Shown here one piece after another: positions 31,946-62,500 of a stretch of DNA of 64,000 nucleotides. The position numbers were made by a program, and so were the translations under genes. Under the pieces are notes generated by a model, which saw only the letters and a program-made list of their open reading frames with translations, had not been told where the DNA came from and made no database searches. Where the stretch lies: positions 32,001-96,000 of the IMG/VR virus record IMGVR_UViG_3300028591_000008; one strand, written 5' to 3'. Numbering within the stretch: the first letter of the stretch is position 1; each line of letters begins with the position of its first letter. Origin of the DNA: a virus (taxonomy: Duplodnaviria; Caudoviricetes).

Positions 31946-32455
31946 TTAACTAAACATTTTATTTATTGCAGCAACATCTGCTTTACCAATATTAAAGTAT
32001 TCTAAACTATTGTCTCCTTCTAGAATTGGTTTAGAATTGATAGACGGTTTATTTGTGATTGATCTATAATCAACAGGTTTTTCTGATAAGAAAGGAAGAT
32101 CTATTACTTTTGTAATACCGTCACCAATTTTAACTCCAGGTATTACGGTATTTTTATTTGTGTAGTAGTTAGTATAAATATAAAAAGCACCATCTTCAGA
32201 TGTTAAATTTATCTAATCATTCCAACCTTCTGTTGTATTATAATAAATAGCTCGCAAATTTAATTCTGATAACTATATATTTCCTTGTAAAGTTACTGAA
32301 TTAATTTGCGGTTTGTTTTTCAAGTTATTATAATCTTGCCCACCGCTTGGCTTACCTGGATTAATACTTTGAGATATGTCTAAATCATATCCATTAGTAT
32401 CTAATTCTAAATCAATTATGCCATTATTTTCTAATATAATTCCATAGTCAGCCAT
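31946..32455 (-). CDS. Structural/fibre-associated protein (TAG read-through)
   Basis: DYNNLKNKPQINSVTLQG and KIGDG motifs; open to TAA 31946. Confidence 0.65.
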
Positions 32456-50650: not shown

Positions 50651-51661
50651 ATGGAATTATAGTATATTTATTTAATGGGTTTATCTGCATTAGCCATTTT
50701 TGTTATAGGATTAATTTTTATTGTTTATGGAATAAAAACCTCTCGTCTTAGTGCGGAATAGGCTGCAGAGAAACACAAGAAATATGTAGAGGAATTAACT
50801 AGAGAATAGGATGAAGAATATTAGAAATCTATTTAGTATTGTCAAGCTATAAAGAAAGATATATAGAAGGCCGAAGCTGATCGTAAAGTTGCTATGGAGA
50901 GGGCGGCCGAGGCATAGGTAGCGACAGATAAACTGCTCCAATCCGAACAGGGGCGACTGGCCGCAGAGCTTCAACGTAGGAAAGAATTGGAAGAAGTTAA
51001 ATTTGAATAGGAAAAAGAAAAAAGATAGCAATGGATTGATCTTTATTATGCTAAATTAAATGAACAAGAAGAACATGCTTATAAACAAAAGAGAGAAGAA
51101 TTATAGGCTGAAATTATATTATTATAGTGCGAGTTAAACGATTTTAAAGCTCGCCAAGACTCAATAAATGAAGCTATTCTTCGTCAAAAGGAACTTAAAG
51201 AAAAAGAAGCTTTTTACTCTATTCAAATCTCAGACAATGATAAAGAAGATATAAAAGTTTTATAGTCGATGGATCTAAAGCTTCATAATCGTGATGTAAT
51301 CCCCAAGCTTATTTGGGAATTATATATACGGCGGCCGGCGCAAGAAATGATTAAGCGAATAACAGGTGGCCGCAAAGTTAGCGGTATTTATAAAATCACA
51401 AATAAAGAAACTGGAGAGTCTTATATAGGGAAAACTACTGATTTTTCTACACGTTGGCAAAATCATTGCAAAACGGCAATTGGTCTTGAGGGTGCGGCCC
51501 GTGCGACTTTACATAATCGTTTAGCACAAGATGGATTATGGAATTATACATTTGAAATACTAGAAGAAGTAGACAAAGAAAATTTGTCTTCAAGAGAAGC
51601 ATTTTATATAGATTTATATGGAACAAAACAACAGCTTAATATGAAAGAAGGGAGTAAATAA
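50651..51661 (+). CDS. Membrane-anchored coiled-coil GIY-YIG nuclease (TAG read-through)
   Basis: N-terminal TM helix, about 170-aa charged coiled coil with about 12 TAGs, C-terminal GIYKITN...YIGKT. Confidence 0.78.
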
Positions 51662-58002: not shown

Positions 58003-58313
58003 AGTCTTACTTTGTTTATAGAGAAAGTAGCAATAAGGGTTGGACAATTTGCCCAGTTCATACAGCTTTTTTAGGTGAAGATTTATCTAAATCTATTAAC
58101 GGTAGCTTCGCGCTTCTTGCTTGTAGAGTTAGCGGGCTTAGTTGGCCTCAGTGGTTGCGCTATTGTAGGCAAAATGGGGCCGCTTTATATGGTAAGGGAC
58201 ATAAATATCCTGTTGCTATTTGGAAGGAACCAAATAAAGAATTTCTTAATATGCTTAACGCGCGGGCGAATGAACTTGCGAAAGTAATAAATTTTGAGGA
58301 GTTGCATCTTTAA
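57999..58313 (+). CDS. Hypothetical protein
   Basis: ATGA overlap with upstream gene; AAGGA RBS. Confidence 0.65.
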   Translation: MKSYFVYRESSNKGWTICPVHTAFLGEDLSKSINGSFALLACRVSGLSWPQWLRYCRQNGAALYGKGHKYPVAIWKEPNKEFLNMLNARANELAKVINFEELHL

Positions 58314-58471
58314 TGAATAAAGAGATCTTTAAAAAGACCGGCGAAGAACTTCAAGAGTTTTTGGCTTTTCGTAAGCGCGGTTCGAAGATAAAAAATAAGA
58401 AAGGTAAGGGGTCTTACGATAGGCAAGATTTTAAGAAAGGAGAATAGAAAGATGAGGGTAATCTTTCTTGA
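58313..58471 (+). CDS. ArfA-like alternative ribosome-rescue factor (ends 58447 if TAG stops)
   Basis: FLAFRKRGSKIKNKKGKGSYDR matches the ArfA KGKGSY-R signature; GAGGAG RBS. Confidence 0.6.
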
Positions 58472-58499
58472 TGTCGATGGAATCATTTTTCTGTAGTAA
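58452..58499 (+). pseudogene. Truncated 5' copy of HAD gene (MRVIFLDVDGIIFL)
   Basis: AAGGAG RBS; HAD motif I, then stops just before the homing endonuclease. Confidence 0.7.
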
Positions 58500-58550
58500 T
58501 AATTCATAAGTGTTACTTATTAGTAGAAGAAATAGTTGGAGGTAACATTT

Positions 58551-59384
58551 ATGGGATATATTTATAAGATTACCAATACCATTAATAATAAAATTTATAT
58601 AGGTTAGACACGTTATACCATACAAAAACGTTGGACTGAGCATTGTTCTGTTTATAATAAATTAGACTATCCTTTATATAAAGCTATACGGAAATATGGC
58701 TAGGATAATTTTATAATCGAAGAAATAGAACAAATTTCAGATGAATTGCTAAATGAACGTGAAATTTACTGGATTGATTTTTATCATTCATACGCACCAT
58801 TAGGGTACGGTTATAATGTAACTCTTGGTGGCGAAGGTAATAGATTATATGAACAAAAGTAGATTTATGAAATGTGGGATAATGGGTTGTGTATAACAGA
58901 AATTAGTGAGTAGACTGGTGCCGATCGTCATGTCGTAACAGATATCCTTAAGAGTTATAAAAACTATTCTATTGAAGAGTCTGAAAAACGTGGTCATGAA
59001 TTTTTATGGAGCAAACGTGGCAGAAAAGTAAATCAATATGATTTAAAAGGTAACTATATAGCAACTTTTAATAGTCTAATGGATGCTCAAAGACAAACGG
59101 GTGTAGCATAGAAAAATATTTTTTGGGTTGTTTCTCATAAAAGTTATAGTGCTGGTGGATATCAATGGAAGTATATAGATGATGACTTTATAATTACAGA
59201 TATTTCTTCTAAAACTATCCGTCAAAAATAGCCGGTAATATAGTTAATTAATGGTGAAGAAAAAGAATATGAATCAGCAGCAGAAGCCGCAAGGTAGACA
59301 GGTATAAACGCTACTTGCATTAGAAAAGTCTGCCAAGGTAAATAGAACTCTGCTGGTGGATATATGTGGAAATATAAAAAGTGA
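58551..59384 (+). mobile_element. GIY-YIG homing endonuclease with NUMOD1 repeats (TAG read-through)
   Basis: MGYIYKITN...YIG[TAG=Q]T, GYNVTLGG and two SAGGYxWKY NUMOD1-type repeats; lies between two copies of the HAD gene start. Confidence 0.85.
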
Positions 59385-59397
59385 GGTGATGCGGTCC

Positions 59398-59863
59398 ATG
59401 AAAGTTATTTTCTTGGACGTTTAGCGTCGATGGAGTATTAAATAATCGTCACACTCGTACAAGAACATCTGATGGTTGGTGTTTTGTAGATGATAGACTT
59501 GTCGCGCGGCTTAGAAGACTTATTAATCAAAGTGGTGCGAGAATTGTGCTTAGCTCTACTTGGCGCGAAGGCTGGCATCAAGAAGATGAGTCTAAGAATG
59601 ATATTTCTTTTATTGAGCTTAGGGATAAGTTTAATCAGTTTGGTATTGAAATTTTTGATCGAACTAGTGAAATGCGGCAGCATAGATGGCAATCAATTCA
59701 AGAATATTTTGAACGCCCGCGTGAAGACCCAATTGAACATTATGTAATTATAGATGATTGGGACGATATGGGTCAATATAGTGACCACCTTGTATGGACA
59801 AATCCTTCTACTGGTTTAACAGAAGCAGATGTGCAAGAAGCTTTAAGAATTTTGGAGATTTAA
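59398..59863 (+). CDS. HAD-family phosphatase (RNA-repair 'Swiss Army Knife' type), interrupted by a 7-nt insertion at motif I
   Basis: MKVIFLDV in frame 0, then VDGVLN...IVLSSTWR...YVIIDD...GLT in +1 frame; GAGGTG RBS. Confidence 0.7.
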
Positions 59864-59866
59864 AAT

Positions 59867-59895
59867 TTGATTTTTCTCAAAATTTATTGTATAAT
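59867..59895 (+). promoter_or_regulatory. Sigma70/SigA-like promoter of tRNA region
   Basis: TTGATT-N17-TATAAT. Confidence 0.6.
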
Positions 59896-59930
59896 ATATA
59901 TGTAAGATGAAGAAAGGAGATAAATCAAAA

Positions 59931-62423: not shown

Positions 62424-62500
62424 GCGAGGTTAGCGCAACTGGTTAACGCATCTGCCTTACAAGCAGAGGATTCTGAGTTCAAGTCTCGGGCTTCGCACCA
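62424..62500 (+). tRNA. tRNA-Val(TAC)
   Basis: TCTGC-CT-TAC-AA-GCAGA anticodon arm, CCA. Confidence 0.92.

Follow-up and report, generated by a model that had tools for sequence, protein, structure and literature searches.

A putative Val-to-Val ribosomal hop across a micro coding gap in a phage HAD_SAK_2 phosphatase gene

Background

The window analysed here is a stretch of 64,000 nucleotides (nt), positions 32,001 to 96,000 of the IMG/VR record IMGVR_UViG_3300028591_000008 (Caudoviricetes), and belongs to an IMG/VR phage genome of 124,253 bp that is complete and has terminal repeats. Within it lies a gene for a phosphatase of the HAD_SAK_2 family in which the codons of the catalytic Asp-x-Asp (DxD) motif are interrupted by the bases TAG-C-GTC (59422-59428). 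Judging from the DNA, we hold with moderate confidence that these bases are a programmed micro coding gap in a working phosphatase gene, crossed by a Val-to-Val hop of the translating ribosome; that recoding of some kind takes place at the gap we regard as quite likely. The same arrangement recurs, in two lengths, in related phage genes that are under protein-level selection from the landing codon onwards and, in the window, it lies at the junction of an inserted homing endonuclease cassette.

Results

The gap and the reading frames around it

From 59398 onward the sequence reads ATG AAA GTT ATT TTC TTG GAC GTT TAG C GTC GAT GGA GTA TTA AAT, and the parts of the interrupted gene are as follows:

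59398..59421, + strand: HAD open reading frame (ORF) 1, MKVIFLDV, 8 codons, comprising strand beta-1 and the nucleophile Asp
59419-59421, + strand: take-off codon GTT (Val), invariant in all carriers of the gap
59422..59428, + strand: 7-nt gap, proposed to be untranslated, made up of TAG (59422-24), C (59425) and GTC (59426-28), the landing codon; inserted in comparison with every intact homologue
59429..59863, + strand: HAD ORF2, 144 codons and TAA (59861-63), in the +1 frame; Pfam HAD_SAK_2

The +1 frame is open for 145 codons from GTC 59426 to TAA 59861-63, and no ATG, GTG or TTG is found in it between the preceding stop and GTG 59546. A preliminary description of the site, made from the sequence alone, placed a 7-nt insertion inside a D-V-D motif, and this is what positions 59416-59431 contain (GAC GTT TAG C GTC GAT). 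About 90 homologues have GAY-RTN-GAY (Asp-x-Asp) at the site interrupted in the window; in an alignment with seven IMG/VR homologues, which read ...CTT GAY RTT GAY GG... here, the window alone has seven extra bases inside L-D-V-D-G, between its Asp and Val codons, and the seven bases are likewise extra relative to the nearest ENA and Logan relatives. The description was also right that a simple +1 shift gives DVSVD, breaking the DxD motif, and that skipping TAG-C with re-pairing on GTC gives MKVIFLDVDGVLN, a product of 8 + 144 = 152 residues. The 15-residue peptide that it assigned to straight reading is obtained only with TAG as Gln, reading otherwise ending after 8 residues; the mini-hairpin that it drew at the gap can be formed, with five pairs including a U.G and -7.3 kcal/mol in 31 nt, but is not stable beyond shuffled sequences (z -1.8).

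By itself ORF2 matches Pfam HAD_SAK_2 (PF18143) with an E value of 9e-24 over profile positions 6-139 of 139, scoring 84.8 bits against a gathering cut-off of 27.5, and only the first strand and the first Asp are absent from the match. These first profile positions and the first Asp would be supplied by ORF1, and only if the gap is bypassed. The closest homologues, some 35 proteins of 76-91% identity, are 152 residues long, and the length of the hop product, 152 residues in one type of carrier (type A, below) and 155 in the other (type B), equals that of the intact homologues of each clade. Residues D7, D9, G10 and V11 are invariant in 44 of 44 aligned intact homologues, and in the AlphaFold model of the homologue P0001, which is 91% identical to the HAD protein of the window and has a predicted local distance difference test (pLDDT) score of 96.6, residues 2-6 form strand beta-1 directly before D7. 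Since D7 and D9 are invariant and residues 1-8 form this strand, the N-terminal piece is needed. The fold of P0001 resembles those of the capless HAD phosphatases MDP-1, HisB-N and GmhB and of the phosphatase domain of T4 PNK; a PDB sequence search gave no match, and a similarity search against GenBank phages gave a tRNA-Asp similarity only.

The hop that we propose would begin with translation from ATG 59398 and would take place when peptidyl-tRNA-Val sits on GUU 59419-21 with a slowly decoded UAG in the A site. The anticodon would be released, the mRNA would slide by 7 nt and the tRNA would re-pair with the next Val codon, GUC 59426-28, which would not be decoded again; decoding would resume at GAU to give the MKVIFL-D-V-D-GVLN protein of 152 residues, with VIFLDVDGVLNNR as the predicted tryptic junction peptide. 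The gap is part of a portable start module, consisting of a leader, eight recoded codons and the gap itself, which arrived in the phage of the window with a GIY-YIG endonuclease cassette that splits the resident HAD gene at its DxD codons.

Recurrence of the gap

Carriers of the gap comprise ten distinct DNA-verified sequences from three HAD lineages, and further carriers were found among N-terminally truncated HAD calls in the protein database. The gap occurs as type A, GTT-TAG-C-GTY (7 nt), and as type B, GTT-TA-GTT or GTT-TA-GTA (5 nt), in which TAG overlaps the landing codon; type A without the two bases CG is type B. Type A is carried by the window, by L075/L076, L077, L078 and L081, and by runs X2, X6 and X9 without an indel, and outside the window its context is GAC GTT TAG C GTT GAY GG behind the same leader and start. 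Its settings vary: upstream lies a Lar-like 67-residue ORF in L075/L076 and L077 and the same endonuclease in L078, and in L081, a 116-kb Joint Genome Institute (JGI) contig, the module directly follows an ArfA-like ORF. The leader is nearly identical in L075, L077, L078 and L081 and is related to the leaders of the type B clade and of L083, a member of the type B subclade which has the related leader and start and no gap. Type B, in the context GAY GTT TA GTT GAY GG or with a GTA landing codon, is carried by L084/L085, L086, L171, L172 and L173/L174, whose HAD proteins are 54% identical to that of the window, and by L087, a 180-kb phage whose HAD_SAK_2 protein is only 32% identical to it. In the protein tree the type B carriers form one clade with 16 N-truncated database proteins, L087 lying far away, and type A carriers stand at no fewer than four separate places among the intact alleles.

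GTT-TAG is unchanged in 10 of 10 carriers and the landing codon is always a Val codon (GTT, GTC or GTA); in both types it is the first GUN after take-off, no GUN triplet lying between the two. The 7-nt gap calls for a shift of +1, the 5-nt gap for one of -1 or +2, and only a GUU-to-GUN hop fits both with one mechanism. Such a hop would account for the invariance of GUU-UAG and for the Val-only landings, and would restore an exact DVDG through cognate or wobble re-pairing. The preliminary description had proposed take-off from Val GTT at UAG, a Val landing and a rebuilt DxD motif, and the invariant GTT-TAG, the Val-only landings, the two gap lengths and the selection described below all speak for this proposal.

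A search of IMG/VR for the exact window junction gave five unrelated chance matches (L016-L020), and two of three metagenome matches (L080, L082) are chance. A scan of IMG/VR for GTTTAG followed by 1-8 nt and codons for D-G-V-L-N yielded 84 matches, the only true carrier being L087 and the other matches reading in frame as G-L-D-R-D-G, and a scan of the same kind in bacterial genomes gave no carrier among the matches listed, of which there were at least 120. When the 124-kb genome was scanned for other hop sites, 27 sequences matched the pattern loosely. Apart from the gap itself, the two most hop-like (G000 28084+ and 60733-) were read individually and rejected, since they lie inside ORFs with TAG as Gln; 17 others have a downstream frame that can start before the landing site is reached, and the remaining matches were set aside as a group on account of short upstream ORFs and nearby downstream starts.

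Some irregular alleles were met among relatives without the gap. P0025/L074 was examined as a carrier and rejected, being an intact allele with a GTG start. In the HAD gene of L083 the Trp codon of the DDWDDMG motif, elsewhere conserved, is replaced by TAG (L083:2155-2157), which is either a nonsense mutation or a codon not read as stop. L073:599-919 and P0038 have, between them, one premature stop after codon 106 and one C-terminal frameshift extension, so occasional broken copies or assembly errors exist among non-carriers.

Selection on the carriers

Decay of the downstream frame, against which the preliminary description was to be checked, was not seen: ORF2 is open to its normal stop in all ten DNA-verified carriers, and neither a stop nor a frameshift interrupts ORF2 in any of the N-truncated database proteins, which number about 20. 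Measured from the landing codon, the ratio of non-synonymous to synonymous substitution rates (dN/dS) is 0.02-0.23; against relatives ORF2 gives 0.10-0.17, and the window against its nearest intact relative 0.10. Type B pairs have dS of 0.16-0.80 with dN/dS of 0.02-0.12, divergence on the L084/L086 scale amounting to dS 0.56-0.80. Between L084 and L086 the region around the gap shows 11-14 differences per 100 nt, the same as its flanks, so the type B gap was inherited vertically. Synonymous changes outnumber non-synonymous ones by 14:1 (the near-identical L171 and L172), 42:5 and 44:20, each departing from neutrality at P<1e-8, and in the type A pair L075 and L077, which share the Lar-like context, 22 changes are synonymous and 12 non-synonymous (P 3e-8).

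Counted over 20 codons beginning at the landing codon, the sites that vary at codon positions one, two and three number 2/4/16 in type B and 2/3/15 in type A. This third-position variation from the landing codon on shows that protein-level selection begins at the landing codon itself. On both sides of the gap the flanking Asp and Gly codons vary synonymously, each in its own frame, and the upstream (ORF1) codons are conserved in carriers.

Integrity of the assembly

The preliminary description had named assembly error as a danger, and the assemblies speak against it. Logan contigs of the probable source run (sheep gut) cover 58281-59403 and 59374-59760 with 0 differences; in a further study a contig of 98.7 kb (X2) extends across 58201-59900 with 98 substitutions and, at 59519/59522, one compensated pair of indels, its only ones. 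Neither X6, a contig of a third study, nor X9, one from an RNA library, has an indel at the gap site, which both cross; the latter keeps the 7 nt, and X9 may derive from DNA and does not prove transcription. All the runs were compared as contigs, beyond the reach of which lie starts, ends, RNA levels and rare variants. In the four runs no contig joins across the gap or the cassette. The micro-intron that had been offered as an alternative to the hop found no counterpart, since neither an Rfam intron nor any other Rfam family matched in 58300-59700 at E values up to 10.

The endonuclease cassette inside the HAD gene

Upstream of the gap the following features were identified:

58452..58496, + strand: remnant of the native HAD start, MRVIFLDVDG, followed by 4 foreign codons and TAG; colinear with L070-L072 up to 58479-58481
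58482..59425, + strand: inserted cassette of 944 nt, running from a leader and the GIY-YIG gene through a new ribosome-binding site and the recoded HAD start to the first 4 bases of the gap
58551..59384, + strand: GIY-YIG homing endonuclease gene, 277 residues, with 9 in-frame TAG codons (Pfam)
59381..59397, + strand: leader of the mobile start module, GTGAGGTGATGCGGTCC, with a Shine-Dalgarno-like GAGGTG 9 nt 5' of the ATG

The endonuclease that the preliminary description named as neighbouring is more than that: its cassette lies within the HAD gene, of whose native start a remnant is left at 58452-58496. This remnant begins ATG AGG GTA ATC TTT CTT GAT GTC GAT GGA and stops at TAG 58494-96. 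In blastn comparisons with the endonuclease-free L070-L072 (rumen assemblies) the homology arms end at 58479 and resume at 59425, and the cassette is absent from L001-L003 and L070-L073, in which the HAD gene directly follows the ArfA-like ORF. The cassette thus splits the HAD gene at its DxD codons, with the gap as its right-hand junction, and carries a second copy of the gene start in which nearly every wobble position is recoded. The V-D-G codons GTCGATGGA stand at both cassette edges (58473-81 and 59426-34). This 9-nt direct repeat was considered as a target-site duplication and rejected, for it is shared V-D-G coding sequence and its left copy differs in X2. The remnant in X2, which is about 6% diverged, reads GAC ATT GAT GGA instead of GAT GTC GAT GGA at 58470-58481, so the cassette there sits in a different resident allele.

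Pfam matches to GIY-YIG (1.9e-8), NUMOD1 (9e-8) and an I-HmuI NUMOD-like domain (8e-11) identify the endonuclease. Between the window and L078 its gene has 34 differences in 558 nt and only 4 codon changes, and it is therefore under selection. The order of remnant, GIY-YIG gene, recoded start and gap is shared by the window, X2 and X6, and by L078 over the part covered by its contig; among 49 relatives of the endonuclease (identity of 47% or less) none lies next to a HAD gene. By analogy with MobA in T4, for which the 50-nt gap has this effect, we infer that the gap spoils the target site of the endonuclease. Such protection is consistent with the architecture of the cassette and with the MobA precedent, and many carriers have no endonuclease beside the gap, namely L081, L075-L077 and the whole of the type B clade.

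Several neighbouring features were noted. The 44-residue basic ORF at 58313-58447, with a KGKGSY motif and a weak Pfam ArfA match (E 0.002), immediately precedes the HAD gene in all the relatives examined. A 67-residue Cys-rich ORF with a weak match to Lar restriction alleviation takes the endonuclease's place in L075 (460-663) and L077 (251-454), where, ahead of the leader, a stretch of about 12 nt still matches the 3' end of the endonuclease gene. In L084 (3580-3858) and L085 (3350-3628), another GIY-YIG-like sequence, with 40% identity to the catalytic domain of the window enzyme, follows the type B HAD gene at a distance of about 0.9 kb. A second GIY-YIG domain of the window is C-terminal in an ORF with 12 TAG codons at 50651-51661, which is followed by a 353-residue ORF. 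Just behind the HAD gene, 59861-59900 form a 40-nt promoter-like motif (TTGATT, 17 nt, TATAAT) that recurs, 82-95% identical, at 7 other intergenic places in the 124-kb genome.

Decoding of TAG and the phage tRNAs

Two of the 4 codon changes between the endonucleases of the window and L078 are CAG/TAG swaps, and the ArfA-like gene offers another, with TAG in L086 where L084 has CAG. Such swaps at otherwise conserved codons show that TAG is read as Gln in these phages. Among the 22 tRNAs that ARAGORN found in the 124-kb genome there is no suppressor tRNA with a CUA anticodon; they include two tRNA-Gln(UUG), two tRNA-Tyr(GUA) and the following:

62424..62500, + strand: phage tRNA-Val, anticodon UAC (ARAGORN)

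This tRNA-Val(UAC) could pair with several GUN codons and may have a role in the hop. The link that the preliminary description drew between the hop and the switch of the TAG code is plausible, TAG being read as Gln. We hypothesise that if UAG is decoded fast late in infection, hopping should fall, so that the gap might act as a timer, with the phosphatase made while UAG is slow and shut off once suppressor activity appears.

Discussion

Weighing the explanations

It is unlikely, in our view, that the gene is dead or dying and the gap a selfish scar or immunity mark that spreads by homing or gene conversion into alleles which have not yet decayed, though several observations point that way. 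Type A carriers form no clade, and their 45-60-nt module is 94-98% identical as against about 80% for the parts downstream, so the module is younger than its host alleles; the sequences indicate that it is spread horizontally over at least four HAD backgrounds, and part of the intactness of ORF2 could therefore reflect recent arrival. The endonuclease, being under strong selection, is probably active; the median carrier-to-carrier dN/dS is 0.17 as against 0.10 for non-carriers; and L173/L174, identical sequences from different runs, have ATA (at about position 640 of L173) in the position of the ATG of other type B genes, equally far from the GGGAG box. Despite this ATA, however, their ORF2 is still under selection, the type B gap has been inherited through dS of 0.6-0.8 at dN/dS of 0.02-0.12 (14:1 for L171/L172), L075/L077 stand at 22:12, no stop or frameshift has entered ORF2 in the ten carriers and the database proteins, and GTT-TAG and the Val landing are invariant. 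The concern applies mainly to the horizontally spread type A. The horizontal spread, the higher ratio among carriers and the missing start nevertheless weigh against a hop, together with other points. The predicted stems differ between types A and B (z -1.5 to -3.0), so that the hairpin is no conserved signal, and the gap lacks a stimulatory stem-loop or nascent-peptide signal in the manner of gene 60; with a nascent chain of only 8-11 residues at take-off, a nascent-peptide signal of that type cannot act, and drop-off of the peptidyl-tRNA is a risk. With TAG read as Gln in these phages, decoding at the A site may at times not be slow, and hopping may be inefficient. Hairpins may be dispensable for a slide of 5-7 nt.

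We give little credence to local frameshifting, in which type A would shift by +1 on GUU-UAG-C in the manner of prfB to yield DVSVDG (predicted tryptic junction peptide VIFLDVSVDGVLNNR) and type B would shift by -1 or +2 to yield DVLVDG or DVVDG. The prfB site is CUU-UGA-C, which an A-site stop followed by C resembles, and a GGA triplet stands 1 nt 5' of the take-off codon in all carriers; yet the two gap lengths would require two mechanisms, and tRNA-Val re-pairs poorly or not at all with UUU and cannot re-pair with YGU or UUA, whereas a GUN landing is cognate. Frameshifting would moreover place one or two extra residues between the two Asp residues, which never vary in 44 homologues and have a single residue between them, and no strong Shine-Dalgarno element lies at the prfB spacing. 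Very improbable is the production of ORF2 alone, by internal initiation or by termination and reinitiation, as an N-truncated, non-catalytic protein: gene callers do place starts inside ORF2, at TTG in L075/L077 and at GTG 59546 in the window, but carriers do not have these starts in common, selection sets in far upstream of them, at the landing codon, and the product would have neither strand beta-1 nor the nucleophile Asp. Group I introns are the classical home of GIY-YIG endonucleases, and the extra bases might be removed from the RNA as a micro-intron or by editing, or might be an artefact of sequencing or assembly. We find this hardly credible, as nothing in Rfam matches 58300-59700 at E values up to 10 and only about 110 nt of the insert are non-coding, no contig of the four runs joins the gap or cassette, the RNA-library contig keeps the 7 nt (though possibly derived from DNA), and many independent studies yielded assemblies with the same gap.

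Implications

The locus offers a small test system, about 60 nt long, whose natural alleles have no gap, a 5-nt gap or a 7-nt gap, three landing codons, and an endonuclease or none, and with which the minimal sequence for hopping could be shown. Annotation is affected too, for gene callers split or shorten these genes, there are at least 25 truncated HAD calls of this family in public protein sets, and loci of this kind would be counted as pseudogenes. The association of bypass with an endonuclease would reach past the topoisomerase genes of T4-like phages to amber-recoded rumen phages, in which it would involve a GIY-YIG enzyme and a phosphatase of the RNA-repair type. Going further, we suggest tentatively, and rather doubtfully, that the 5- and 7-nt gaps are natural, evolvable, very short hops with almost no accessory signal and with a dual role, keeping the DxD target immune to the endonuclease with the protein unchanged and serving as a translational timer in phages that read TAG as Gln.

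Comparison with known systems

A 2016 review presumed that short hops are utilised in nature, none being known at that time, and its short list of natural cases, for the most part unproven, comprises gene 60, the yeast mitochondrial byps, the likely case of Hau3 and an unconfirmed case in Prevotella (PMC5009743); our literature search found no paper on a HAD gene with a hop of 5 or 7 nt, nor on a micro-gap linked to a GIY-YIG enzyme. In T4 the bypass of gene 60 accompanies the homing endonuclease MobA, blocks self-cleavage and outlasts loss of the endonuclease (bioRxiv 10.1101/2022.08.31.505936), and gene 60 homologues have a stop or hungry codon in the A site, tolerate wobble at take-off and landing and contain no premature landing triplets (bioRxiv 10.1101/2022.08.31.505936). 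The HAD locus is like gene 60 and MobA in that an endonuclease cassette lies in the conserved catalytic region of an enzyme gene and carries recoded flanking gene sequence together with a gap, in the UAG directly after take-off and the matched or wobble-matched landing, in the retention of the gap without the endonuclease, and in the repeated invasion of one site. It differs in the length of the gap (5 or 7 nt as against 50 nt in gene 60), in taking off from Val GUU at codon 8-10, where no long nascent-peptide signal is possible, in having no conserved take-off stem-loop, in its GIY-YIG enzyme with NUMOD domains where MobA is of the HNH kind, and in its host gene, which encodes a HAD phosphatase and not a topoisomerase. 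There is no sequence homology between the HAD gap cassette and that of gene 60, and a gap of only 5-7 nt cannot be homologous to the 50-nt cassette.

The gene for the large terminase of the Streptomyces phage Hau3, a likely case of bypass, resembles the HAD gap as a short coding gap in a phage gene with a slow A-site codon, whereas its gap is led by the rare sense codon UUA and no endonuclease cassette has been reported (PMC5009743). The byps of Magnusiomyces capitatus mitochondria are, likewise, short mobile inserts corrected in translation, but are 27-55 nt long, mitochondrial and dependent on relaxed organellar decoding (PMC5009743). With the +1 site of prfB (RF2) the type A gap shares an in-frame A-site stop and a C after an NUU codon; prfB, however, needs re-pairing from CUU to UUU and a strong Shine-Dalgarno sequence 3 nt upstream, and leaves the 5-nt variant unexplained. 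Synthetic stop-hops and short hops (+5, +6) in Escherichia coli were reportedly described by Weiss and co-workers in 1987 and by O'Connor and co-workers in 1989. In the proposed HAD hop, as in such synthetic ones, the peptidyl-tRNA would move from a pre-stop codon to a matched codon a few bases on, and hops of tRNA-Val are among the cases described (PMC5009743). Those hops are engineered and of roughly per-cent efficiency, whereas the HAD configuration is natural, conserved and under selection.

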